Below, in pieces: positions 2,330 through 31,998 of a DNA stretch of 32,000 nt; the stretch's first letter is position 1, and every line of letters begins with the position of its first letter. Below the pieces are notes generated by a model. That model had not been told where the DNA came from, searched no databases, and saw nothing but the letters and a program-made list of their open reading frames with translations. A program made the position numbers and the translations under genes. Source of the DNA: Nitrospira sp. (GTDB lineage: Bacteria > Nitrospirota > Nitrospiria > Nitrospirales > Nitrospiraceae); NCBI GenBank assembly GCA_024760525.1, contig CP060499.1, forward strand, positions 997,296 to 1,029,295, written 5' to 3'.

Positions 2330-3964
2330 ATGAGTTCAACACCAGGCAGCACACCGGCGCGCCAATTTAAGAAGCTCCTGATGTCCGAGCAGTTGGAATT
2401 CATCTGTGAAGCCCACAATGGTCTGAGCGCAAAAATAGTTCAAGAAGCCGGCTTCCGAGGTATTTGGGCCAGCGGCCTTTCCATCTCGGCGCAATTCGGT
2501 GTCCGCGACAACAACGAAGCCAGTTGGACCCAAGTCCTGGACAATCTGGAATTCATGTCCGATGCGACGACGATTCCGATTCTTCTCGACGGCGATACCG
2601 GATACGGCAACTTCAATAACATGCAGCGTCTCGTCCGTAAACTGGAGCAGCGCCGTATTGCCGCGGTCTGTATCGAGGACAAGCTTTTCCCCAAGACGAA
2701 TAGCTTTATCAAGGGGGACGCCCAACCGATGGCGGACATGCAAGAGTTTTGCGGCAAGATCAAGGCAGGCAAAGATGCCCAGACCGATCCGGACTTTTCC
2801 ATCATTGCCCGGGTGGAAGCATTTATCTGCGGCTGGGGGCTGGCGGAAGCTTTGCGGCGAGCCGAGGCCTATCGGCAGGCAGGTGCCGACGGCATCCTCA
2901 TTCATAGTGCGTTATCGGTACCGGATGAGATCCTGTCGTTCAAACAAGAATGGGGAAACCGATGCCCGGTCGTGATCGTGCCCACCAAATACTACGCCAC
3001 GCCCACCGATGTGTTTCGGCAGCATGGATTTTCCATGGTGATTTGGGCCAATCACATGCTGCGGGCCGCGGTGGCCGCCATGCAGAAAACGGCGAGGATT
3101 TTAAAAGAACAAGAACATCTCCTCTCCATTGAAGACAAGGTCGTGCCGGTTTCAGAAATCTTTCGCCTGCAAAATGCTGCGGAATTACAGGATGCTGAAG
3201 ACCGATACCTTCCCCGCGGCGCCGAAAACACGTCCGCCGTCGTGCTGGCCGCCTCCCGCGGGGAGGAACTCCGGGAGTTGACGGAACATCAGCCCAAGAC
3301 GATGGTGAACATTCAGGGCGCGCCGATTCTGTCTCACATCGTGGAGGCGTACAACGCCGTGGGGATCAAAGACATCACGGTCGTGCGCGGGTATAAAAAG
3401 GAAGCGGTGACCCTGCCGAACTTGACCTATCTCGACAACGATGACTTTGCTGAAACCGGTGAACTGGATTCCCTGGACAAAGCTCTCCGGGCGCGGAAAG
3501 GCCTGGCCAAGGACCTGATCGTTTCGTACGGTGACGTGCTGTTCAATAAATACATCCCTCAGGCGCTCTGTCAGGAAAAAGAAGACTTTGTGATCTTCGT
3601 GGATAGCGATTGGCAGAACCAAAGCAGCTATGCTCGCTTGGGCGGTTTTGCCGAATGCTCTTTGCCCAATTCAAAGAAGGCCTTTAACGCGAAGATCTAT
3701 CTCAAGCAATTGGGAGATACGGTTCCGAGAGAACACACTCATGGAGTCTGGATGGGTTTTCTGAAAACTTCTCCTGCTGGAGCCGTCCAGTTACAAACGA
3801 TTCTGACCGCAATGCTGGCCGATCCCGTCAATCGCAAAGCCGGCATCCCCCATCTGTTGCAAGAACTGCTAAGGCGTCAGCATCCGATTCGCGTGCTGTA
3901 TACGGTCGGCCACTGGCTTGATATCAACAGTCTCGATGACGTGGTTCAAGCAGGTAATTTTTGA
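2330..3964 (+). CDS. pepM: phosphoenolpyruvate mutase fused to a C-terminal nucleotidyltransferase (LicC/PntC-like) domain
   Basis: 544-aa ORF. The N-terminal ~290 aa carry PEP mutase/isocitrate-lyase superfamily motifs ('[10 protein letters not shown]', '[10 protein letters not shown]', 'CIEDKLFPK'). The C-terminal ~250 aa begin with an '[16 protein letters not shown]' sugar-nucleotidyltransferase-like glycine-rich loop. Confidence 0.85.
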
Positions 3965-3968
3965 CTTC

Positions 3969-3991
3969 TGCGCGCGTTTTACGCGCGCGCA
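3969..3991 (+). other. alternating-GC stem-loop in the pepM-ppd spacer
   Basis: tgCGCGCG-tttta-CGCGCGCgca forms a 7-8 bp pure G:C stem with a 5-nt loop, 5 nt after the pepM stop. No U-tract follows. It may be an intra-operon attenuator or an mRNA stability element. Confidence 0.45.
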
Positions 3992-4085
3992 CTCATCTCG
4001 TCATGATGGGGTCGCCGCCGGGTAATTCGGGATCGCCCCACTTGCAACGTATTCGTACTCAATCGTTCTCTATGGAGAAGAGTCC

Positions 4086-5219
4086 ATGCTGAACCCACAG
4101 GAATTTATTGAATGTCTGAAAGAGAATGGCGTTGAGTTTTTTACGGGAGTGCCGGATTCCCTGCTTAAAGATTTGTGTGCCTGCATCGCTCATACGAGTC
4201 GAACCGATCGGCACATCATCGCCGCGAATGAAGGCGGAGCCGTGGCTTTGGCACTGGGGTACCACTTGGCAACACGGAACATTCCCCTCGTCTATCTACA
4301 GAACTCCGGGTTGGGCAACGTCATCAATCCCCTTTTATCACTGGTTGATGAAGAGGTGTATTCGATTCCTATGCTGTTCGTCATTGGCTGGCGTGGCGAA
4401 CCGGGGTTTCACGATGAGCCTCAACACAAAAAGCAGGGTCGAGTGATGCGTCCCATGCTTGAGGCCATGGAGATTCCCGTTTCCGTGTTGGGGCCGGAAT
4501 TGGATCATGCGGCCACGATCGTGAAAGACGCACTTACCTATGTCCGAAAGACCAGCGGCCCCTATGCCCTCATCATCAAGCAAGGTACCTTTGGCACCTT
4601 TGTTGCGCCGCGGACTGAGAAAACGGAGTTCCCACTCACTCGGGAAGAGGCGATCCAGCAGGTGATCGATGCCCTGGAGCAGCGAGATGTGGTTATCTCT
4701 ACCACTGGCATGCCTTCTCGGGAAGTGTACGAATACAGAAGCAAAAGGGGTGACGGCCATCAGCGCGATTTCTTAACGGTTGGCGGCATGGGACATGCTT
4801 CTCAAATCGCGCTTGGCATTGCGCTTCAAAGACCTGAGCGCTCCGTCTATTGTCTCGATGGAGACGGCGCGCTTCTGATGCACATGGGGGCTCTGGCGCT
4901 CAATGGAACGCTCAAGCCCAGAAATTTTAAGCATATTATTCTGAACAATGGCGCCCATGATTCGGTCGGTGGTCAGCCGACAGTGGCACGGGATATTGAT
5001 ATTCTGGGCATTGCTCGTGCCTCTGCCTACGAACAGGTCCTGAGGGCTCAAACGAAGCAGGAACTCCAGTCGTGTCTGGAAGAGCTGAAACGCGCAATTG
5101 GTCCGAGCCTACTGGAAGTCTGCGTACGCCGCGGAGCGAGGAAGGATTTGGGCAGACCGGCCACCACGCCGGTTCAGAACAAGAACGCCTTCATGGAGTT
5201 TATCGAGCGCAACGGTTAG
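4086..5219 (+). CDS. ppd: phosphonopyruvate decarboxylase (thiamine diphosphate-dependent)
   Basis: 377-aa ORF. N-terminal TPP pyrimidine-binding domain ('FFTGVPDSLLKDL...NEGGAVALALGYHLA'). C-terminal TPP motif 'LDGDGALLMHMGALA...ILNNGAHDSVGGQ'. Its position directly after pepM is the canonical phosphonate arrangement. Confidence 0.85.
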   Translation: MLNPQEFIECLKENGVEFFTGVPDSLLKDLCACIAHTSRTDRHIIAANEGGAVALALGYHLATRNIPLVYLQNSGLGNVINPLLSLVDEEVYSIPMLFVIGWRGEPGFHDEPQHKKQGRVMRPMLEAMEIPVSVLGPELDHAATIVKDALTYVRKTSGPYALIIKQGTFGTFVAPRTEKTEFPLTREEAIQQVIDALEQRDVVISTTGMPSREVYEYRSKRGDGHQRDFLTVGGMGHASQIALGIALQRPERSVYCLDGDGALLMHMGALALNGTLKPRNFKHIILNNGAHDSVGGQPTVARDIDILGIARASAYEQVLRAQTKQELQSCLEELKRAIGPSLLEVCVRRGARKDLGRPATTPVQNKNAFMEFIERNG

Positions 5220-19948: not shown

Positions 19949-21049
19949 ATGCCTGTCCCGCGCGTTAGAACGGGGGCGTTTGCCGCCGGTATCGCCGCAT
20001 TGATCCTTGGATTGCTTATCTTCCATCTTCCCACCGAAGTTGCGAAATCTTTTCTCTCGTTATTTCCTCAACCGATATCGACAACGTTTGAGATGGAACA
20101 CCTCATGTCGGCGGCACGGGAAAATGCCACCGCCCTCACGCCTCAGGCTTTGGATGAACCGTCGTGGAAGCCCTTGGTGACTCGAGTCTTCAGCATGGCG
20201 TTGATCGGGCTGCCCATTTGGTACCTTTTACAACGTCGTGAACGCGAAGAGGAACTCCAACGACGCGATGAAGGCTGGGCGGCGCGCCTGCACGCGCGCA
20301 GTGAAGAGCTGATGGCCGTCAACAACGCCCTTGTCAGCGAGGTATCGAAGCGAATTGATACCGAACAATCGCTCGAAGCCAACCGGCGGGACCTTCACGT
20401 GCTTGCCTCGCAGCTTCTTCGCCTACAGGAGGACGAGCGACGGCGAATTTCGCGCGATCTGCATGACGACATCAATCAACGGTTGGCGCTCTTGTCGATC
20501 GACATCGAAATGTTGGAACAGCAGCTCTCGCACGCTTCCGACGGGACCGTCAGAACGGTGCACGCCATTCAGACCCGCATTGTCGAGCTTTCCGAAGATG
20601 TTCGCCGCCTGGCGTATCAGTTTCACCCATCCATTCTTGACGATCTTGGTTTATCCATTGCGCTCCGACGCCTCGTGGATGATTTTCAGGCCCGTACCGG
20701 GCTTAACGCCCGGTTCGTCTGCAAAGACATACCGAAACACTTGGCGCAGGACGTTGTCACCTGTTTCTACCGCTTGGCGCAAGAAGCCTTGGCGAACATT
20801 TCCCGTCATGCCAGGGCGAACAATGTTCAGGTTGAGCTTCGGCGATTGCGAGACGGCCTTCAGCTTCTGGTGAGTGATGATGGCGTGGGATTTGACGTGA
20901 ATCGTGATGAAGGCCGACGAGGAAGTCTCGGCCTATTGAGTATGAGGGAACGCGTATCCTTAGTTGCCGGAACCTTCGATATCCAATCGACACCGGGCGA
21001 GGGAACACGTGTCTGTGCGTGGGTGCCGTTGAAACAGGAGCGTGCATGA
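19949..21049 (+). CDS. sensor histidine kinase, NarX/DegS-type (HisKA_3 + HATPase_c)
   Basis: 366-aa ORF. Two TM segments flank a short (~45 aa) external loop, followed by a coiled-coil linker. H-box 'RRISRDLHDDINQRL', N-box 'QEALANISRHARA', and G-boxes 'DDGVGF' and 'GLLSMRERV...GEGTRV'. Its stop overlaps the response-regulator ATG (ATGA at 21046-21049). Confidence 0.85.
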   Translation: MPVPRVRTGAFAAGIAALILGLLIFHLPTEVAKSFLSLFPQPISTTFEMEHLMSAARENATALTPQALDEPSWKPLVTRVFSMALIGLPIWYLLQRREREEELQRRDEGWAARLHARSEELMAVNNALVSEVSKRIDTEQSLEANRRDLHVLASQLLRLQEDERRRISRDLHDDINQRLALLSIDIEMLEQQLSHASDGTVRTVHAIQTRIVELSEDVRRLAYQFHPSILDDLGLSIALRRLVDDFQARTGLNARFVCKDIPKHLAQDVVTCFYRLAQEALANISRHARANNVQVELRRLRDGLQLLVSDDGVGFDVNRDEGRRGSLGLLSMRERVSLVAGTFDIQSTPGEGTRVCAWVPLKQERA

Positions 21050-21693
21050 GCAAGCCTCGTGTCCTCTTGGCGGATGATCATGCATTAGTATTGGAAGGAT
21101 TCAAAAAGCTGCTGGAAGAGCATTGTCAGGTCGTGGGCGCCGTAGAAGACGGTCGGTCTCTGCTGGATGCGGCGAAACGGTTGCGGCCGGATATCGTGGT
21201 GATGGATATTTCGATGCCGCAACTGAACGGTCTCGATGCGGCGCGCCGCTTGCGAAAAATAGTTCCCCAGGCTCGATTGATTTTTGTGACTGTCCATGCT
21301 GATCCGGACTATGTCAATCAAGCCTTCAAGGCCGGGGCATCAGCCTACCTGCTGAAACGGTCGGCTGGGTCCGAGCTGTCACAGGCGATAGATGCGGTGA
21401 AGAAGGGCAATTATTACGTCACTTCTTTGATTGCAAAGGATCTTGTTCAATCCGCAATTTCCGAAACGGAGCCGGATAGTGGCAGTCAGGATCGCTTGCC
21501 GGCGCGCCAGCGGGAAATCTTACAGCTAGTGGCCGAAGGCCTGACTCTGAAAGAAATCGCTTCAACGCTCGGTCTCTCTCCGAAGACGGTCGAATATCAC
21601 AAGGCAAAGCTGATGGAGCAGCTTCGCCTCCATACGACGGCTGAACTGACAAAGTACGCGCTGGCCCACGGTCTCACCCCTTCATCCGAATAG
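21046..21693 (+). CDS. NarL/FixJ-family response regulator (REC + LuxR-type HTH)
   Basis: Starts at the internal ATG 21046 ('MSKPRVLLADDH'). Phospho-acceptor context 'DIVVMDISMP'. C-terminal HTH 'LPARQREILQLVAEGLTLKEIASTLGLSPKTVEYHK'. Confidence 0.9.
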   Translation: MSKPRVLLADDHALVLEGFKKLLEEHCQVVGAVEDGRSLLDAAKRLRPDIVVMDISMPQLNGLDAARRLRKIVPQARLIFVTVHADPDYVNQAFKAGASAYLLKRSAGSELSQAIDAVKKGNYYVTSLIAKDLVQSAISETEPDSGSQDRLPARQREILQLVAEGLTLKEIASTLGLSPKTVEYHKAKLMEQLRLHTTAELTKYALAHGLTPSSE

Positions 21694-21969
21694 CTTGAAG
21701 CTCGTTTTGATTTTTCCCCGAATTCCTGCCCATGGAATTTCCTCTCGCACTTTAGGCAAGTACCTAATGGCACATGAAACGGTGCCCTGCTAAATATTAA
21801 ACGTACCCGCCGTTCTTTCAACGAAAGGAGCAGAGTTCGTGGCGGCTTATGGAGGCAGAGACCCGGGGCAGTGGCTGTTGTCGATACCCAGAGTCGGGAT
21901 CTCTTCCTCTCGGTATGCCCATCTAAAAATACAAGCTTGCACATTCGTACTAAACAAGGAGGTCTAGAC

Positions 21970-22794
21970 ATGGCATCACCTCAAGCAACTGCTGACAAAG
22001 GGTATGACATATCGCAGTGGTATGACTCGAAGCCGGTGAAGTTGGGCTGGCTGGCGATCCTGGGGATCGGGGTGTTTTGGGTGCTGTATCAACGGGCCTT
22101 CGGGTACTCGCACGGGTTAGACTCCATGACCCCGGAGTTCGATTCGGTGTGGATGGGGCTGTGGCGCTTTAACATTTTAGCGAACGCCGTGTTCTTTGCC
22201 GTGACGATCGGCTGGATTTGGGTGACGCGGGACCGGAACCTGGCGAACCTGGACCACAAGCTGGAGCTGAAGCGGTACTTTTACTGGATGGGGTGGCTGG
22301 TGTGCTACATCTGGGGCGTGTACTACGCGGGCAGCTATACGCTGGAGCAAGATGCGGCGTGGCACCAAGTGATCATCCGGGACACGAGCTTCACGGCGAG
22401 CCACATTGTGGCGTTCTACGGGACGTTCCCGTTGTACATCACGTGCGGGGTGGCGAGCTACCTGTATGCGCAGACGCGGTTGCCGCTGTACGCGCAGGCG
22501 ACGTCGTTCCCGCTCGTGGCGGCGGTGGTGGGGCCGATGTTCATCCTGCCGAACGTGGGGTTGAACGAGTGGGGGCATGCGTTCTGGTTCGTCGATGAAT
22601 TGTTCTCGGCCCCGTTGCACTGGGGCTTTGTGACGTTGGGGTGGTGCGGGTTGTTCGGGGCAGCGGGCGGGGTGGCGGCGCAGATCGTGAGCCGGATGTC
22701 GAATCTGGCGGACGTGATCTGGAACAACGCGCCGAAGAGCATCCTGGATCCGTTCCCCAGCCAAGTGGGCCCCGGGCACAAGACCGTGTACTGA
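21970..22794 (+). CDS. amoC: ammonia monooxygenase subunit C (CuMMO PmoC/AmoC family)
   Basis: 274 aa from ATG 21970, which has a consensus AAGGAGG 7 nt upstream. It aligns along its whole length with Nitrosomonas europaea AmoC as I recall it ('YDxSxWYDSK', 'YQRxFxYSHGxDSMxPEFDxVWMGLWR', '[15 protein letters not shown]', '[30 protein letters not shown]'). Both metal-site ligand patterns are intact: D-x3-H-x12-H and N-x3-H-x13-H. Confidence 0.95.
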
Positions 22795-22921
22795 CAGGAG
22801 CTGGTCCTGAGGAGTGACGGTCAATATCAGGGACGTCCAAAACGTAGCTTGTGCTGGAACGGCAGACCGGGTAGTCCGGATCCGCCGCTCCAGCCGGCTG
22901 GAATGACGGAGGATGTCAGTT

Positions 22922-23764
22922 ATGTTTAGAACCGATGAGATTATTAAGGCCTCGAAGTTGCCGCCGGAAGGCGTGGCGATGTCCAGGCACATCGACTACA
23001 TTTATTTCATTCCGATCTTGTTTGTGACCATCGTGGGCACGTTCCACATGCACTTCGACCTGCTGGCGGGGGACTGGGATTTCTGGATTGATTGGAAGGA
23101 TCGGCAGTGGTGGCCGATCGTGACGCCCGTCACCGCGATTACCTTTTGTGCGGCCCTGCAATATTACAATTGGGTGAACTATCGGCAGCCCTTTGGGGCG
23201 ACGATCACGATTCTGGCGCTGCTGGCCGGGAAGTGGGTGACGATCGTGGCCGCCTGGTGGTGGTGGTCGAACTATCCGTATAACTTCGTGATGCCGTCCA
23301 CCCTGCTGCCGAGCGCGCTGGTGCTGGACATCGTCTTGTTGTTGACCCGGAACTGGACGTTGACGGCGGTGATCGGGGCGTGGCTGTTTGCCGCGTTGTT
23401 CTATCCGACCAACTGGGCCATCTTCGCCTATAGCCATACGCCGCTCGTCATCGACGGCACCTTGCTGTCGTGGGCGGACTACATGGGCTTTGCGTATGTC
23501 CGGACCGGGACGCCGGAGTACATTCGGATGATCGAAGTGGGCTCGCTGCGGACGTTCGGCGGGCACAGCACGATGATCTCCTCGTTCTTCGCGGCCTTCG
23601 CGTCGTCGTTGATGTACATCCTGTGGTGGCAGTTCGGGAAGTTCTTCTGCACGTCCTACTTCTACCTGACGGATGACCGGCAGCGGACGACCAAAGTGTA
23701 CGATGTGTTCGCGTACGCCACGTTGGCGAACCAGGACAAGGCCAAAGTCGGAGGGAAAGCATGA
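22922..23764 (+). CDS. amoA: ammonia monooxygenase subunit A (CuMMO PmoA/AmoA family), comammox clade A-like
   Basis: 280 aa from ATG 22922. GGAGG lies 9 nt upstream of this ATG, whereas the alternative ATG at 22913 abuts the SD. It is homologous to N. europaea AmoA throughout ('FRTxEIxKAxKxPPE', '[24 protein letters not shown]', 'YRQPFGAT', '[23 protein letters not shown]'). The recalled comammox clade A amoA primer sites match exactly at 23165-23181 and 23564-23579. Confidence 0.95.
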
Positions 23765-23790
23765 ACGCCAAACACGCCTTCAAACGGTGA
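23761..23790 (+). pseudogene. amoB: possible 5' remnant of amoB (9 codons, then TGA TAA)
   Basis: This ATG overlaps the amoA stop (ATGA), which is where amoB would start. It encodes MNAKHAFKR*, resembling the recalled AmoB N-terminus of N. europaea (MGIKNLYKRG...) at K4, aromatic-7, K8 and R9. The rest of amoB is missing. ftsH starts 59 nt later. Confidence 0.35.
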
Positions 23791-23848: not shown

Positions 23849-25654
23849 GTGAAAAGCAAAGCACAAACCGTACTGTTTTGGATGGTGGTAGGCCTGTCCA
23901 TGGTATTTCTTCTCAACCTATGGAACATGCCGACGCGCGTGTCAGAGGAAGAAATTATTTTTAGCGATTTCATGGCGAAGCTCGACCAGGGCGACATCGA
24001 GAAGGTCATCATCAAGGGACATCATATCAGCGGCGTATTAAAAGATAGTTCCCGGCTCCGAACCTACGCGGCGGACTATCCCGATCTCGTCCAGGTGCTG
24101 CGAGAGAAGCATGTTCAGATCGAGGTCAAACCGCTCGACGAAAGCCCGTGGTACGTCCAATTTCTGATGACCTGGGGACCGTTCGTGCTCTTTCTGGGTC
24201 TGTTGTTGTTCTTCATGCGCCGGATGCAGGTTGGGAAGGAAGCTCTGTCCCTCGGGAAAAGCAAAGCCCGCATGCAGACGGATGAGCGGAAAAAGGTGAC
24301 GTTTTCCGATGTGGCGGGAATTGATGAAGCGAAAGAAGAAGTACAGGAAACGGTTGAATTTCTGAAAGACCCTCGAAGATTCCAGAAACTCGGCGGACGC
24401 ATTCCTAAGGGTGTGTTGGTCGTAGGCCCGCCGGGAACCGGGAAAACATTGTTGGCTAAAGCGATTGCCGGTGAGGCGGGAGTCCCCTTCTTCAGCATCA
24501 GCGGTTCGGATTTTGTGGAAATGTTCGTGGGGGTCGGGGCCTCTCGCGTTCGGGACATGTTCGAACAAGCGAAAAAGCATGCCCCCTGTATCATTTTTAT
24601 CGACGAGATCGACGCCGTCGGACGGTCACGGGGGGCGGGGCTTGGCGGCGGAAACGATGAACGTGAGCAAACGCTCAATCAGTTGCTGGTCGAAATGGAC
24701 GGATTCGATACGACGGAAGGTGTCATCCTGGTCGCAGCCACCAATCGGCCGGATGTGCTCGACCCGGCCTTGCTGAGGCCAGGTCGGTTCGACAGGCAAG
24801 TGGTGGTGAATCAGCCTGACCTCCGAGGCCGTGCGCAGATTCTGAACGTGCACACGAAGAAAGTGCCGGTTGCAGCCGATGTAGAACTGGAGAAGATCGC
24901 TCGAGGAACTCCCGGTTTCTCAGGCGCCGACTTGGAAAACTTGGTCAACGAGGCTGCGCTTTGGGCTGCTCGTCAGAACAAGAACGAAGTCGGGGCCGTA
25001 GACTTCGAAACGGCGAAAGACAAGATCATGATGGGCGCAGAGCGCAAGAGCATGATGCTTACAGACGAGGAAAAACGAGTCACCGCCTATCACGAGGCGG
25101 GCCATGCCTTGATGGCCAAACTGCTGCCGGGCACCGATCCAGTTCACAAAGTGTCCATCATTCCAAGAGGCCGCGCATTGGGTGTGACCATGCAGTTGCC
25201 GACCGACGATCGCCACAATTACTCCAAAGAGTTTTTGCGCGATAGGCTGGCGATTCTCATGGGCGGTCGAGTCGCGGAAGAACTGGTATTCAAACACGTC
25301 ACAACCGGAGCCGGCAACGATCTGGAGCGTGCAACTGATCTCGCGCGCAAGATGGTCTGCGAATGGGGCATGAGCGAAAAGCTGGGGCCGCTGACGTTCG
25401 GGCAGAAAGAGGAATCGATGTTTCTGGGACGCTCCTTTGGGGGCAGGCGTGATGTCAGTAGTGAAATGGCGCTGGAAATCGATCTGGAGATCAAGCGTCT
25501 TGTTACAGAAAGTTACGAGAGGGCCAAGCAAGTCCTCACCGAACAGATGGTGAGCTTGAAGGCGCTGGCGGCAGCACTCTTGGAAAAAGAGTCGCTGGAT
25601 GGGTCGGAAATCGACCGGATTATTCTACAGTCTTCTCCAGTCGCTTCTGCCTAA
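23849..25654 (+). CDS. ftsH: ATP-dependent zinc metalloprotease FtsH
   Basis: 601-aa ORF with a GTG start and GAGAGG upstream. Two TM helices, Walker A 'GPPGTGKT', Walker B 'IIFIDEID', SRH '[19 protein letters not shown]' and zinc motif 'HEAGHAL'. Confidence 0.95.
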
Positions 25655-25712: not shown

Positions 25713-28700
25713 TCACTCTTCCTGAATCACGAGCAACAGCTTTCCGGCGGGAACATGCTCTCGCTCCTGGCAATATAGCTGTTGCACAGTCCCATTCACC
25801 GGAGATTGGACCGTGAGCTCCATTTTCATCGATTCAAGAATAACTACCGGGCTTCCCGCAGTGACGCGCTGTCCGCTCGCCACGAGCAATTTCCACACAG
25901 TACCCGTTACGTGCGCAGTGATGGCGTGAGCCCCTTCGGGAAGATCGATCTCAGCTGATGGTTCTGCCGGGCCGGAGTCGGTGTCACTGATGTACTCCGC
26001 CTGACCACTGTTCCTCCAGCGCTCCCGCTCGGCTTCAAATGCAGCTTGCTGCTTGGTTTTGAACGCGCTGATCGAGGCGGCATTCTGTTGCAGGAACGTA
26101 TTGTACTGTTTCAGGCTGAAGGTCGTTTCTTCTACCTTCAACTTAAATCGTCCAGCTGTGAAGTCCTTGCGCAGCTCGTGCAGTTCGCTCCCGCTCACAG
26201 GATAGAAGCGAATCTGATCGAAAAAGCGCAGCAGCCACGGGTTGCCCTGCTTGAAATCGGCGGTTTGGCGATAGCGATTCCACATTTGCACGGTGCGTCC
26301 GACGAACTGATATCCGCCGGGGCCTTCCATGCCGTAGATGCACAGGTACGCGCCACCTATTCCCACCGCGTTCTCAGGAGTCCAGGTGCGCGCCGGGTTA
26401 TACTTCGTGGTCACAAGGCGGTGGCGGGGATCCAGCGGAGTCGCGACCGGCGCACCCAGATATACGTCCCCCAGCCCCAATACCAGATAGCTTGCCTCAA
26501 ATACGATACGTTGCACGTCTTCGACGCTGTCCAGCCCGTTGATACGACGGATAAACTCGATATTGCTCGGACACCACGGCGCATCGTTGCGTACGGACTG
26601 CATATATTTGTCGATGGCGACCTGTGTGGCCTCATCGTCCCATGAAAGCGGAAGATGCACGATGCGCGTCGGCACCTCCATTTCATCGACAGGGGGGAGA
26701 TTCTTCTCGGCACCCACGAGGATGTTGAGCAATCTGGCACGAGGCAATACTCGCGGCTGAAAATGAATCTGCAGAGACCGGATGCCGGGCGTCAGATCCA
26801 CGATTCCTTTCAGATGCTCCCTGTCGATTGTTTGTTGGAGCCATTCCATCAGGGCGTGCGCATGAAAGCGAAGATTGAGGTCGAGTATCGGCGGCCCATA
26901 CTCGATCAACAGATTTTCGTCCCCGGACTGGCGATACACGACCTGCATGTGCCGAGGACCTTCAGGAATATGATCCAAAATAGGCTGGTCCAGCAGGTCG
27001 GCTTCGGATGGCTTCGGGGTGATGTCTGGCTGCCGAAGACTTTGGATCATTACGCCCTGTGAGTGATCAAGCGCCAATGCGTGTTCTGCTGAAATCCGGC
27101 AGAAGCGTACGTGATCACCCGGCTTGAGCTGACCTATCTTCCAGAGATCGGCGCGGACGATCGAGGCGGGGCAGACGAAACCGCCGAGACTGGGACCATC
27201 AGGTCCCAATATCACCGGCATATCGCCGGTGAAAATCACCGCGCCAAGGGCATAGGCATTGTCGTGGATATTGGATGGGTGTAGACCTGCTTCGCCTCCG
27301 TCGTGGCGCGACCATTCGGGCTTGGGACCGATCAGACGTACGCCGGTGCGGCTGGAGTTGTGGTGGATTGCCCACTCGGTCTCAAAAAACATGCGGATAT
27401 CGTCATCAGAGAAAAACTCCGGCGCTCCGTGTGGGCCGTACAGCACGCGGATTTGCCAGTTATCGGTATAGTTCGGAATCAATTCCTGCGGCAGAGTGTG
27501 GGGGGTGTGGTCGTGCGTGGCCGCAATGTGCAGTAGGTCGCCACTGCGCAGAACGCGTCCGGCATGTCCACCGAACTGGCCGAGGGTGAAGGTGGCCTTG
27601 CTGCCAAGATAGGCAGGCACCTGAAAGCCGCCTTGCACGGCCAGATAAGCCCGGCAGCCGTGATTGCTGATTCGCCCGAACTGCAGCAATGCCCCTGCTT
27701 TGACCGCATGCGATTGCCATTGCGCCAATGGTTTGCCGTCCAGATGCATCTCGATCGATGCGCCGGTTGCGGCAATGACGCTGTCGCAGTTGAAACGAAG
27801 GGTCGGGCCGATAACAGTGATCTCGAGTCCGGCCTCATCCTGTCGGTTGTTGACCAGGCGATTGGCCAGACGGAATGCCAGATCATCCATCGGGCCTGAC
27901 GGCGGCACGCCGACTTGCCAATACCCCAGACGTCCTGGATAGTCCTGCACCGTCGTCTGCATTCCAGGGGTGAGCACCTCGATGGTCTCTGCGTGGTATC
28001 CAAATCCTTTGAGCACGCCCGTCGTGTACCGACCGCTACGGAACGCTGCACCGTGTAAGACTTGCTTGAGATAATTCAAATTCGTTTCAATGCCGTGCAG
28101 GGCGGTCTTATGGAGGGCTGTCGTCAGGCTTGCAATGGCTTGTTCACGCTCCGGCTCACGGATGATAATCTTGGCCAGCATCGGGTCATAGTACGGAGAG
28201 ACTTCGACACCACGCTCCACCCAGGTCTCGACACGTGCTTCCGATGGAAAGTCTGCGGCCGTGAGTGTGCCGCAGGACGGTTGAAAATCTTTCGCCGGAC
28301 TCTCGGCGTACACCCGTGCTTGAATGGCGACCCCTCGCGGTTGGATGTTGAGTGAATCCAGCGGTGGGAGATTCCCGGCAGCCTGCCGTACCATCCATTC
28401 CACCAGATCAATGCCGGTCACTTCTTCGGTCACACCGTGCTCGACCTGCAGACGCGTGTTGACCTCGAGGAAATAGAACTCGCTGCTGGAGGCATCGACA
28501 ATGTATTCCACCGTGCCGGCCGACTGATAATTGACCGCTTTCCCCAGGCGCGCGGCCGCGTCCAGCAGGGCTTGGCGCAAGGGCGGAGTCAGATTAGGAG
28601 CGGGGGTCTCTTCTATGACCTTCTGGTTGCGCCGTTGGACTGAGCAGTCACGTTCCCCTAGCGCGATCACTTTGCCCTTCCCGTCGCCGAAAATCTGAAC

Positions 28701-29327
28701 CTCAATGTGGCGGGCGTCTTCGACGTATTTTTCGAGAAACAAGCCGGCATCCTTAAAGTTGTTCTGTGCCAGGTATTTCACCGACTCGTACGCCTCGTTC
28801 AGTTCCTCTTTGTTCCGGCACAGACGCATGCCGATCCCGCCGCCGCCGGCTGTGCTTTTCAGCATGACGGGATAACCGATCTTTGCCGCCTCGGATACGG
28901 CGTGGTCGATGCTATCCAGCAGACCGGTCCCCGGAAGCAGCGGAACTTGATTCTGCATAGCCAGGGCGCGCGCCGTGTGTTTGAGACCGAAGGCGCGCAT
29001 CTGCTCCGGGCTGGGGCCGATAAAGGAAATGCCTTGGCCTGCGCACTGCTCGGCGAAATGTGCCTGCTCGCTGAGAAAACCATAGCCGGGATGAATGGCC
29101 TGTGCGCCGGTTCGTCTGGCAACATCCAAAATCTTGTCGGCGCGGAGATAGCTGTCCGCTGCGACTCCGCTGCCGATCCAATGAGCTTCATCAGCCTCTA
29201 CCACGTGCCGAGACAAGAGATCGGCGTCTGTATACACAGCGACGCTTTCCACCCCGATACGGCGCAGGGTACGGATGATACGGCAAGCAATGGTGCCGCG
29301 GTTGGCAATCAGTACCTTCTCAAACAT
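25713..29327 (-). CDS. urea carboxylase-family biotin enzyme, probably guanidine carboxylase
   Basis: 1204 aa from ATG 29327 ('[20 protein letters not shown]'). Domains: biotin carboxylase, KipA/KipI-type (allophanate hydrolase subunit 2 and 1-like) carboxyltransferase, and a C-terminal BCCP with biotinylation motif 'ILESMKMEL'. The 21 codons upstream of this ATG overlap the preceding gene and are probably not translated. Confidence 0.9.
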
Positions 29328-30006
29328 GCGCAATCCCTTTTCCGGCCGCCTCCCATACCAACAAGCGAATCGGCGTGGGATTGAAGGCATTACAGGGGTT
29401 ATTGAGCTGCGGGCAATTCGAGATCATCACGACGACGTCCATTTCAGCGCACATTTCGACATATTTGCCGGGCGCCGATACTCCGTCGACAAATTCAAGC
29501 CCGCCGGCGTCCGTCACCGGAACGTTCATGAAAAAGTTGATATTGCTGGGGAGATCGCGTTTGGTTAGGCCGAGTTGTTCACAAAGCGGATCGTGTGCCA
29601 AGGCATGGAGAAAACTATCTCGGCAGCTATGCATCGCATGCTTGTCCAGTGCATAACGAACTCTGTTGCTTTCCGACGCGCAGGCCCCGCCCAGCGTATC
29701 ATGACGCCCGCACGTGTCGGCGACGATCGTGAGCATGACGTTGCCGAAATTGGAATAGAGCTTGGTGCCGGTAGTCAAATACAGGCTTCTTTGCCGGCTG
29801 ATCGTGTCGGTGGCGCTATAGCGTTCCGGTGTATGAGCCGGGTTGAAGAACAGGGTATCGACCGCCTGGTTTCCTTCCAGATCGACAATGCGAAACGTCG
29901 CTCCTTTTTTTACCAGCTTGACCCACGGTTCGCCTGCGGGGCAGATCTCATCGACGACGGCATGCTCTGGATCAAGCCGGCTTTCGATCAGGTTGTGCAC
30001 GCTCAT
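29320..30006 (-). CDS. DUF1989 'urea carboxylase-associated' protein (carboxyguanidine deiminase subunit-like)
   Basis: 228-aa ORF. '[18 protein letters not shown]...YSATDTI...[13 protein letters not shown]...[16 protein letters not shown]' follows the DUF1989 pattern. It overlaps the carboxylase start by 8 nt and the upstream paralogue by 4 nt. Confidence 0.8.
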
Positions 30007-30734
30007 TCGACACCTCCCTTACAGGCATACAATCGTTGAGTGTGTTGGAGACCTCGCATATTCTCAGCCAAACCCATACATTCTGCGGTGGATCCAGCCG
30101 GTGTAGGGAACAGGGCTAAGCGGACTGCACCTGGACGGTAGACTTTGGATGGGTCGAGCGGGTGCGGGGCGGCGGACAGCACAACCAGCGTATCCATTTC
30201 GAAGCTCAGATCGACGGAGTCGCCGGGTCTTCTGTGATCTTCCTTAAAAGACAGTTCTCCGGATGAATCAGCGGTGATCTTACTGAAAAAATTAATGTTG
30301 GAGACGACATCCCGCTTCCCTAACCCCCATTTGCCCAGCTCGATGAGCATTCCGTCCAGCCCGCTCCGATACATCTGATTCCGATGCTCCTGATATCGGG
30401 CGACACCGTATTGCTTCTCTATCTGCTCGGCATCACTCAGTCCGCATGCGGTGTCATGCCAACCGGTCGTGTCTGCGGTAATGAAACAGAAAATGCGCCC
30501 CATATCGGAATAGCAGGCGTGTCCTTTGGTCAATCGGAAGGTATGTTGACACTTCAGCGTATCCGCCATGTTGTACCGTTCCAATTTCTCTTCACGGTTA
30601 AACAACAGCACGGCGGCGTTGGCTCTGCCTTCGACGTCTTCCAGCCGCAGGGTCGTGCCACGGCGCACAATACCGGACCAATGACAACCTCCGGGGACGG
30701 TTTCTTCCCAGAGCAAGGAATGAGCGTGATTCAT
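30003..30734 (-). CDS. DUF1989 'urea carboxylase-associated' protein, second paralogue (carboxyguanidine deiminase subunit-like)
   Basis: ORF 30003-30749. I prefer the ATG at 30734 ('[11 protein letters not shown]') because GGAGGAG lies 6 nt upstream of it. '[18 protein letters not shown]...YNMADTLK...[13 protein letters not shown]...[15 protein letters not shown]' parallels the downstream paralogue. Confidence 0.8.
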
Positions 30735-30765
30735 GTGTGACTCCTCCATAACGTAAGGCGATTGA

Positions 30766-31998
30766 TTAATTCTTGCGGAGACGGTTGGTCAGCACGTACA
30801 GCGTCGTCACTCCCAGGATGCTTCCGAGGACCAGCGGGACAGCCCAGAGTTGCCACCAGGGAGCATCGGGCGAGGTTGCATAGGGGCGCGGCCATGCAAT
30901 ATTGATGAATTCGAATACTGACCAGACGAAGGCGACCGTATTGATGAGCAACCCCCAGGCGCCTAGTTTCAGCTGACCCAATGAGGGATCCCAACGGCCT
31001 GTGAGACGGGTAAAGAGTCCAACGCCCGTCGTCATCGCAAACATGGCGTACAACCCGCCCGTGCCGAACGCCAGCACCGTCGCAACTGCTTCGTCGTTGA
31101 GTCCGAAGAGCAATCCGAGCGTCGCGAGCAGAACCGTGAACATCACGGCGTTATGCGGAGCTCCGGCAGCGGTGACCCGACTCAGGAGGGCCGGCATACT
31201 CCCCTCACGCGCCATGGAAAATACAATACGGGATGTGTATTGCACCATGGATGACCCGCAAGCCAGAAAGGCAATCATGACAATCGTCAGGAAAGGGGTT
31301 TCGGCCCACGCTCCGAAGTTGTCGACGATCACGGGGGTGACGGGATCGGACGCGGCGCTCGTATGGACCAATGTGTCACGACTGAAGCTGAGGGTGAGCG
31401 CGGAAGAGTTGAAGAGCACCACGCTTCCCACCATGCAGAGAGACAAAAAGATCGCGCGCGGCACCATTCGTTTGGGATCGTGGGTTTCTTCGGCAATGGT
31501 TGAGCAGGCATCGAAGCCGATGAACGCCCAGCCGGAAATGGCAAGTGCCGCCAGAAACGCGGCGGTCTGGCTGGGGGCGGTTCCCGTCCCGAGATGCGCG
31601 AACAGTTCTGAGAATTCATGTTGCCGGAAAAAGAAAAACAGCAGCAGCGCGACACCGAACGAGCCGACGATTTCCGCATAGACACCCAGGGAAATAAGGA
31701 ACTTGAATATCGAGACGTGGACCAGGTTGAGGATGGTGCACACCAGCATGAACACCGCGCCCCATATCACGAGGCTGACTCCTGTTCCACCTCCTGATCC
31801 GAAAAAAATGGCCAGCCAGACGCCGCCGGTGTAGGCGGTGGTGGTGAGCATCGCAATCGTGGAGCTGACATAGATGGCTCCGGCATATGTCCCTGTGGTG
31901 GGGCCTCCCAGCTGCCTCGCCCATTTGTACGCTCCACCCGCGATCGGAATCTGAGAGGACAGCTCCGCATACACGGTTGCCACCAGCAGCTGCATCAC
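30766..31998 (-). CDS. APC-superfamily amino acid/polyamine-type permease (5' end outside the window)
   Basis: 410 aa visible, all polytopic membrane sequence ('YAELSSQIPIAGGAYKW', many Gly/Ala-rich TM helices). The ORF runs off the window edge, so it is N-terminally truncated here. It lies 16-31 nt upstream of the DUF1989 pair on the same strand. Confidence 0.75.
   Translation of the reverse strand: MMQLLVATVYAELSSQIPIAGGAYKWARQLGGPTTGTYAGAIYVSSTIAMLTTTAYTGGVWLAIFFGSGGGTGVSLVIWGAVFMLVCTILNLVHVSIFKFLISLGVYAEIVGSFGVALLLFFFFRQHEFSELFAHLGTGTAPSQTAAFLAALAISGWAFIGFDACSTIAEETHDPKRMVPRAIFLSLCMVGSVVLFNSSALTLSFSRDTLVHTSAASDPVTPVIVDNFGAWAETPFLTIVMIAFLACGSSMVQYTSRIVFSMAREGSMPALLSRVTAAGAPHNAVMFTVLLATLGLLFGLNDEAVATVLAFGTGGLYAMFAMTTGVGLFTRLTGRWDPSLGQLKLGAWGLLINTVAFVWSVFEFINIAWPRPYATSPDAPWWQLWAVPLVLGSILGVTTLYVLTNRLRKN

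Follow-up and report, generated by a model that had tools for sequence, protein, structure and literature searches.

A conserved partial duplicate of the amoCAB operon retaining amoC and amoA upstream of ftsH in clade A comammox Nitrospira

A 32,000-nucleotide stretch of DNA from a Nitrospira sp. (contig CP060499.1 of assembly GCA_024760525.1, positions 997,296 to 1,029,295; hereafter the window) carries amoC and amoA, which encode two subunits of ammonia monooxygenase (AMO), between a two-component system and ftsH (Table 1). These genes are those of the AMO of clade A complete ammonia oxidisers (comammox) of the genus Nitrospira, and they form a second, partial copy of amoCAB that is cut off in codon 9 of amoB. 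The best overall explanation, to which a probability of about 0.85 is assigned, is that an old partial duplicate of amoCAB has been maintained by gene conversion and by selection as an additional source of these two subunits.

The 3' breakpoint of the duplicate is marked by a stump of amoB, the ATG of which overlaps the amoA stop codon (ATGA) as it does in the canonical operon. The locus is therefore not a self-sufficient amoCAB operon, its eight amoB codons being followed by a stop and then by ftsH. Apart from this stump, no amoB, amoED, copCD or hao was found in the 32 kb of the window, and the initial annotation, which had reported all of them absent from the vicinity, was right but for these eight codons. 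The lack of amoB, copCD and hao near the pair is explained by the window holding the second, partial copy of amoCAB.

The canonical counterpart was found in CP060501.1, a closed 4.54-Mb Nitrospira sp. chromosome to which about 18 kb of the window align collinearly (16.7 kb at 95.6% and 1.5 kb at 93.8% identity). This chromosome encodes the same 280-residue AmoA twice, once at an ftsH locus with the gene order of the window (L001) and once 2.3 Mb away (L002), where bacterioferritin genes, copC, copD, amoC, amoA and amoB are followed by cycB, cycA, haoB, haoA and cytochrome c maturation (ccm) genes, so that amoCAB, haoAB and cycAB are seen together in this 95.6%-identical sister genome. Between the two loci of CP060501.1, identity is 99.9% across 794 bp of amoC and 99.8% across 895 bp covering amoA; it sets in about 30 nt into amoC and breaks off 21 nt beyond the amoA stop codon. 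In the window itself, amoC is homologous to its canonical counterpart from about nt 21999 onwards, and roughly its first ten codons are thus specific to this locus. The megablast alignment of the paralogues splits into two blocks at the amoC 3' end and the spacer. At the protein level, the AmoC of the window is 98% identical to the canonical AmoC of the sister genome, most of the differences falling within roughly the first ten residues and at a few C-terminal positions, and its AmoA is identical to the canonical AmoA of that genome.

The presence of a canonical cluster in the window's own genome is deduced from accession numbering and from the sister genome. Exact GenBank matches to the AmoA were UVT16895.1, UVT14947.1, UVT19479.1 and UVT21491.1, which fall into two pairs with numbers about 1,950 and 2,010 apart. 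These pairs would correspond to two genomes with two AmoA copies each; by its number, UVT14947.1, the second identical AmoA, belongs to the same genome as UVT16895.1, the entry of the window. No paper on the accessions CP060501 or GCA_024760545 was found in the literature.

The same arrangement recurs in related genomes. The order histidine kinase, response regulator, amoC, amoA and ftsH was found, in full or up to the contig limit, at L001, L010, L012, L036, L045, L050, L067, L070 and L004, representing at least eight clade A genomes which span both main clade A subgroups and include the chromosome-scale CP060501.1 and OZ245008.1. Canonical amoCAB was also recovered by the same search in four of these genomes and, with L046 as the partner of L045, five genomes hold both copies. 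An amoB stump was present in all nine ftsH-type loci examined, with the breakpoint within codons 8-11; it matches the amoB of its own genome in four genomes and is decayed at L036 and L045 (ATG to CTG). The shared stump and breakpoints in the nine loci imply one ancestral duplication and rule out an assembly artefact.

Such an artefact, in which the junctions of amoCA with ftsH and with the two-component genes would be a chimera created at the amoCA repeat, would be in keeping with the many metagenome and metagenome-assembled genome (MAG) contigs that start or stop inside amoC or amoA. These breaks are consistent with a 1.8-kb amoCA repeat disrupting short-read assembly, by which a second copy can be hidden in draft genomes. 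The same junctions are nevertheless present in independent assemblies, including CP060501.1, OZ245008.1 and several metagenome contigs, and both contain unique sequence, namely the locus-specific 5' end of amoC and the truncated amoB. A chimera is consequently considered very improbable and was rejected on the recurrence of the junctions and on their unique sequence. Individual contigs differ from the common arrangement. At L003:1-3282 (JGI 3300039411), which matches the window at 97% identity from amoC on into ftsH, the gene 5' of amoC is an Lcl_C-domain gene on the minus strand and there is no regulator; this contig is either another arrangement or chimeric. At L042:6371-7098, in MAG JAMMSM_CMX_2, amoC is recovered as two overlapping partial tblastn matches in different frames, suggesting a frameshift, possibly a long-read assembly error. 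L010:13627-14424 and L012:13810-14616 hold a third amoC about 0.9 kb 3' of ftsH (amoC-amoA-ftsH-amoC), in the place occupied in the window by a putative guanidine operon described below.

Comparison of paralogues with orthologues points to gene conversion between the two loci. Within CP060501.1, MFD08447, MFD08497 and OZ245008.1 the amoA paralogues are 98-100% identical, and in a fifth genome (L036/L034) 90%, while in the region-wise identity matrix amoA orthologues from different genomes are 79-91% identical. The same matrix sorts three segments by locus type: the sequence upstream of the genes, the opening 29 nt of amoC and the sequence downstream. Concerted evolution of this kind was found in five relatives for which the two loci are both available, and in the genome of the window the comparison of paralogues is limited to the identity of its two AmoA proteins. 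As judged from these alignments, the amoC and amoA coding blocks are homogenised with the canonical operon by gene conversion. As for segment 22761-22890, its spacer types are mixed across loci and do not strictly follow locus type, which suggests occasional longer exchange tracts.

The affiliation of the pair with clade A was established from primer sites, from the AmoA tree and from the genomic background. The initial annotation had given the clade A primers comaA-244F and comaA-659R as matching amoA with a 415-bp product, and the sequences it gave proved identical to those published, TAYAAYTGGGTSAAYTA for comaA-244F and ARATCATSGTGCTRTG for comaA-659R (Pjevac et al. 2017, Table 1, PMC5543084). 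The same source gives the amplicon as 415 bp, which is also the span from 23165 to 23579 in the window, and lists among its single oligonucleotides the variants matched here, 244f_c and 659r_e. No match to the clade B primers was found at the homologous amoA sites with up to three mismatches.

In a neighbour-joining tree with 200 bootstraps, a distance tree and not a maximum-likelihood analysis on a curated set, the AmoA of the window falls in a group of 100% bootstrap with UW-LDO-01, CG24B, Ga0074138 and ST-bin4, and within it in a subgroup of 88% with ST-bin4, SG-bin2, UBA2082 and LK70. 'Rifle clade A' RCA stands one node outside that group at 68% bootstrap, the wider clade A node again having 100%. 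The AmoA of Ca. Nitrospira kreftii is 94% identical to that of the window. A separate branch holds the sequences that show YFWTFY, the primer signature of clade B, at 59-61% identity to the AmoA of the window, and the AmoA of ammonia-oxidising bacteria (AOB) at 59-62% and the PmoA of Methylocystis and Cycloclasticus at about 45% lie in separate clades. In a 2026 study, a MAG with an AmoA clustering with UBA2082, ST-bin4 and SG-bin2 was assigned to clade A2 by Hao phylogeny (PMC13374858). Tree placement, primer match and Nitrospira background agree, and the amoCA of the window is that of a clade A comammox Nitrospira AMO of the ST-bin4, SG-bin2 and UBA2082 subgroup ('A2'), as far as clade A is concerned just as had been proposed from the sequence at the outset. 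The metagenomic AmoA sequences P0007-P0010 ('Nitrospirota bacterium' MEK6617470.1), about 70% identical to that of the window, lack the primer-site residues of both clade A (YYNWVNY) and clade B (YYFWTFY), and in the tree they lie between clade A and the sequences bearing the clade B signature; they may represent a further Nitrospirota AmoA lineage.

Both genes are intact open reading frames, at the coordinates given by the initial annotation, and their products belong to the bacterial copper membrane monooxygenase subunits A (AmoA/PmoA) and C (AmoC/PmoC). AmoC matches Pfam AmoC (PF04896) over its full length (3e-106, 354.6 bits) and the NCBIfam equivalog NF041641 AmoC_BACT (340 bits, cut-off 319), and AmoA matches Pfam AMO (PF02461), also over its full length (1.5e-98, 329.9 bits, cut-off 27.5), the NCBIfam equivalog NF041557 AmoA_BACT (349 bits, cut-off 290) and the solved AMO structure 9pxf_D (E = 2e-118). 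The early estimate by eye that both proteins are about 55-65% identical to those of Nitrosomonas europaea, related to the betaproteobacterial lineage but distinct from it, agrees with the identity measured to Nitrosomonadaceae and Nitrosospira, 59-62% for AmoA and 64-66% for AmoC. The two PmoC-type metal-ligand sets that had been noticed in AmoC were located, and aligning AmoC with the solved AMO structures 9leg (9leg_C) and 9pxf (9pxf_G) shows both sets to be conserved. Alignment of AmoC residues 28-229 to 1yew_C residues 55-257 gives, from the alignment ranges, an offset of about +27/28, by which the motifs correspond to Asp156/His160/His173 and Asn227/His231/His245. As for the amoA start, the open reading frame opens at ATG 22913, which would give a form of 283 residues, and ATG 22922 (MFRT..., 280 residues) is the probable start because its spacing of 10 nt from GGAGG at 22907-22911 fits, the AmoA homologues all begin with MFRT, and exact database matches were obtained for the 280-residue form only, the exact look-up of the 283-residue form returning none.

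The next question of interest is whether the second copy is functional. The coding sequences of amoC and amoA at the ftsH-type loci are covered by tblastn to 93-100%, except at the contig limits of L004 and L070, which start after amoC or inside amoA, and no premature stop or frameshift was detected in either gene at these loci. Between orthologues, the ratio of nonsynonymous to synonymous substitution rates (dN/dS, omega) is 0.03-0.06 for amoA and 0.03-0.15 for amoC. In the genome that holds L036 and L034 (61b56...), the amoA paralogues differ at 70 nt and at a single amino acid (omega = 0.003) and the amoC pair has an omega of 0.12, with no recent homogenisation of this pair by conversion. 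The 70 nucleotide differences against one amino acid difference point to selection on the second copy itself and not merely to copying from a selected donor, and this comparison argues for purifying selection of its own on the second amoCA.

The alternative, that the pair is a functionless leftover of an incomplete duplication kept intact-looking by conversion from the canonical copy, draws on the loss of amoB, without which the locus alone cannot make AMO, on the 98-100% identity of the paralogues in several genomes, and on Ca. N. kreftii, which has an AmoA 94% identical to that of the window and is reported with one amoCAB and orphan amoC copies (PMC8115096). Set against this are the L036/L034 comparison, in which selection is seen without recent homogenisation, the retention of full-length amoC and amoA at the ftsH-type loci while the amoB stump and the spacer decay freely, and the good Shine-Dalgarno sequence before amoC. 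A mere relic is therefore regarded as improbable, and a pseudogene was rejected on the intact full-length genes and the purifying selection.

Taken together, the maintained partial duplicate would have the following history and role. One ancient partial duplication of amoCAB, with breakpoints some 30 nt into amoC and some 8-11 codons into amoB, would have landed between the two-component system and ftsH, and repeated gene conversion with the canonical operon together with strong purifying selection would have maintained the amoC and amoA blocks. The locus would serve as an extra source of AmoC and AmoA, presumably expressed from its own promoter and ribosome-binding site and possibly under the control of the adjacent kinase and regulator. 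The two subunits would join, by assembly in trans, AmoB (and AmoD/E) from the canonical copCD-amoCAB-hao cluster elsewhere in the chromosome, and the product would be an ordinary copper AMO converting NH3 to NH2OH.

Several points weigh against this explanation. AmoB must come from another locus, which the window's own genome presumably carries, and 'complete' nitrification by this organism follows from its affiliation only. Conversion from a selected donor alone could keep a silent, near-identical copy intact. Moreover, conservation between species is poor upstream of amoC, and scans for sigma-70 promoters and terminators around amoCA gave background counts.

The genes on either side of the pair raise a further possibility as to its role. 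In the kinase, a short loop lies between two hydrophobic segments at the N-terminus and no sensor domain is recognisable, its similarity to MctS, UhpB, LiaS and NarQ/NarX is below every NCBIfam cut-off, and it is syntenic with amoC in all loci of the kinase-regulator-amoC type. Exact matches of the regulator are UVT16893.1, UVT19477.1 and MDK2744635.1, all annotated as Nitrospira sp. Close orthologues of the kinase-regulator pair (at least 82%) are followed by amoC in all five loci with matchable downstream sequence (L087, L090, L091, L093 and L094), the remaining regulator-seeded contigs ending within about 0.4 kb of the regulator or giving no match; distant regulator orthologues (at most 76%) have an unrelated second regulator downstream. 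No 'empty site', in which the pair would be followed directly by ftsH, was seen in the metagenome scan seeded on the regulator. On the 161-kb contig FRDC01000866.1 (L091:4901-8930), the orthologous pair has a singleton amoC (96% identical) after it and then CbiX-like and phosphoribosyltransferase genes, with no amoA or ftsH, and the link between the two-component system and amoC thus exists without amoA. On the other side, the co-directional ftsH starts 84 nt after amoA, and the terminator scan found no terminator-like site in this gap. This synteny suggests that the two-component pair controls the extra amoC(A), and ftsH may be co-transcribed with amoCA.

On these grounds the locus could be a separately regulated module for replacement of AMO subunits during repair or stress, in which the kinase and regulator would induce AmoC and AmoA together with FtsH to clear damaged subunits, by analogy with FtsH-dependent D1 turnover in photosystem II and with the stress-linked singleton amoC3 of Nitrosomonas europaea. 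In its favour, the order from kinase to ftsH is kept across clade A genomes with amoA up to 20% different in nucleotide sequence, the close kinase-regulator orthologues precede amoC in the five loci just mentioned, the short gap between amoA and ftsH has no terminator-like site, the amoC N-terminus, ribosome-binding site and upstream region are locus-specific, and singleton amoC in AOB has been tied to stress response (review, PMC6311188). However, the basis of this proposal is synteny alone, the upstream region is not conserved between species, the amoC link at L091 needs no ftsH, the kinase has the indistinct character described above, and no open-access paper linking ftsH with comammox amo was found. 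Such a module is accordingly thought unlikely, and the more specific version, a dedicated AMO repair cassette under envelope-signal control, with a membrane-sensing kinase inducing replacement AmoC and AmoA as well as FtsH, slightly more doubtful still.

The regulator, AmoC and AmoA of the window are exact matches to the consecutive GenBank proteins UVT16893.1, UVT16894.1 and UVT16895.1 ('MAG: Nitrospira sp.'), the AmoC entry UVT16894.1 being on a contig of 4,209,870 bp. A scan of species-representative genomes returned 66 loci at 82-98% AmoA identity, all of which save one are in Nitrospira or Nitrospiraceae MAGs, the next matches being Nitrosomonadaceae at 59-61%. The exception, L037 (CAADGK010000026.1), is titled 'uncultured Nitrosospira sp. 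isolate CMX' and has an AmoA of clade A type 87% identical to that of the window; its organism label is evidently wrong.

A host other than Nitrospira (a betaproteobacterial AOB, a methanotroph or a new lineage) or a recent horizontal acquisition could be argued from the G+C content of amoCA, slightly above that of the whole window (59.7% vs 56.7%), and from the thought relationship of comammox amo to betaproteobacterial amo (bioRxiv 10.1101/138586; PMC6311188). The initial annotation had left room for 'another unexpected host of AMO' and had proposed to classify the flanking genes, which turned out to match the Nitrospira chromosome CP060501.1 at 94-96% identity over 18 kb. With these flanks, with the 66 best genome matches (at least 82%), one mislabelled record apart, and with a locus syntenic across many Nitrospira genomes, and given the low identity to AOB AmoA and to PmoA reported above, the window holds neither a betaproteobacterial amo nor a methanotroph pmo or pxm locus. 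A foreign host is thus hardly credible, even less so than an assembly chimera, and an AOB or methanotroph origin was rejected on the Nitrospira flanks and the clade A AmoA, provided that the reference genomes are not mis-binned.

Table 1. Features of the window, with positions counted from its first nucleotide
Feature	Position	Strand	Basis or remark
Membrane histidine kinase, HisKA_3 / NarX-LiaS type	19949..21049	+	Pfam HisKA_3 and HATPase_c
NarL/LuxR-type response regulator	21046..21693	+	Pfam Response_reg and GerE; directly 5' of amoC
Shine-Dalgarno AAGGAGG	21957..21963	+	6 nt 5' of the amoC ATG; read from the sequence
amoC	21970..22794	+	274 aa; Pfam and NCBIfam matches; identical to UVT16894.1
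CuC-type ligand set, D-x3-H-x12-H (AmoC D128/H132/H145)	22351..22404	+	AmoC residues 128-145
CuD-type ligand set, N-x3-H-x13-H (AmoC N199/H203/H217)	22564..22620	+	AmoC residues 199-217
amoC 3' end and amoC-amoA spacer	22761..22890	+	not homogenised: about 47% to the canonical copy vs 96-100% in the coding blocks
amoA	22922..23764	+	280 aa; Pfam and NCBIfam matches; clade A placement
comaA-244F primer site, variant 244f_c	23165..23181	+	one match in the window, 0 expected
comaA-659R primer site, variant 659r_e	23564..23579	-	one match in the window, 0 expected
amoB stump	23761..23790	+	ATGAACGCCAAACACGCCTTCAAACGGTGA = MNAKHAFKR-stop; first 8 codons match the canonical amoB start
ftsH (AAA+ / M41 membrane protease)	23849..25654	+	Pfam; NCBIfam FtsH_fam equivalog, 866 bits; synteny
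ispD, ispF, phosphoenolpyruvate (PEP) mutase, truA, amiC, tatD, aroG, TonB-dependent receptor, cobW	window flanks
B12 radical SAM enzyme, DUF2254, two-component pair, ftsH, urea-carboxylase-type operon	window flanks

Two further gene groups were noted in the flanks, and an Rfam scan of the window found no RNA family. At 2330-5219 (+), a 544-aa fusion of PEP mutase and a nucleotidyltransferase domain precedes a thiamine pyrophosphate (TPP) enzyme resembling phosphonopyruvate decarboxylase, and by these similarities the two are assigned as a phosphonate biosynthesis gene pair. Beside ftsH, at 25713-31998 (-), lies an operon of an APC-type permease gene that runs off the end of the window, a pair of DUF1989/UAAP genes and a gene for a 'urea carboxylase' of 1225 aa (TIGR02712, 1924 bits), in which Asp at residue 723 (about position 701 of the profile) is the guanidine signature. 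A Guanidine-I riboswitch (92.9 bits) lies directly 5' of the permease gene in the sister genome, where the region is syntenic (L001:19411-19515, minus strand). The operon looks like a guanidine carboxylase pathway, which is reported to be encoded by only two comammox genomes, most of the others using guanidinase (Palatinszky et al. 2024).

Compared with known systems, the pair shares amoC-amoA order, ligand motifs and clade A primer signature with the canonical clade A cluster of Ca. Nitrospira nitrificans, Ca. N. kreftii and L002, but has only eight codons of amoB and no copCD, amoED or hao/cyc neighbours, and its amoC 5' end, amoC-amoA spacer and both flanks differ. Comammox Nitrospira generally carry a single amo copy (bioRxiv 10.1101/138586). 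Ca. N. nitrosa is given as an exception with duplicated amoA (review, PMC6311188) and two identical AmoA copies are given for the clade A2 MAG SFBR_MAG_26 (2026 study, PMC13374858). Both thus have a second amoA in clade A like the present organism, and SFBR_MAG_26, like the window, clusters with UBA2082, ST-bin4 and SG-bin2; in the accessible portions of these reports, no description of the structure or conservation of the second locus was found. The multiple amoCAB copies of AOB (Nitrosomonas, Nitrosospira), near-identical within a genome, display the same concerted evolution, with paralogues closer than orthologues, but AOB duplicate whole operons including amoB, whereas the lineage of the window kept amoC and amoA only, and its proteins are about 60-65% identical to those of AOB. 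Singleton amoC genes, such as amoC3 of N. europaea and the four orphan amoC genes that Ca. N. kreftii has besides its one amoCAB (PMC8115096), are likewise amo subunit genes outside the main operon; unlike them, the locus of the window has kept an entire amoA and what is left of amoB, and its sequence has been homogenised with that of the operon copy instead of diverging from it. In the open-access literature, no paper on ftsH together with comammox amoA, nor one using the word 'amoCA', was found, and it may be that neither the conserved organisation of the second locus nor its amoB stump and concerted evolution has been described before.

Clade A comammox Nitrospira have been known since 2015. 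The amoCA of the window is itself already known, its proteins being in GenBank under correct names and a second amoA having been noted in the literature, and the conservation of the locus structure adds only an increment to a phenomenon that was known before. A conserved partial duplication accounts for the unusual surroundings of the pair, which makes the finding for the most part an ordinary one. It has practical consequences nevertheless. With two amoA targets per genome for the comaA primers, quantitative PCR of amoA overestimates the cell numbers of such lineages about two-fold, and a 1.8-kb repeat that breaks assemblies can make amoB or the second copy go unseen in MAGs and distort comparisons of gene content. 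The shared amoB stump and breakpoints indicate that the duplication predates the split of the two main clade A subgroups, and such an early duplication qualifies the textbook statement of a single amo copy in comammox. The conserved link to a two-component system and to ftsH is a lead on the regulation of AMO subunit supply; if the repair cassette considered above were true, clade A comammox would have a turnover system for their key enzyme, comparable to the D1/FtsH repair cycle.

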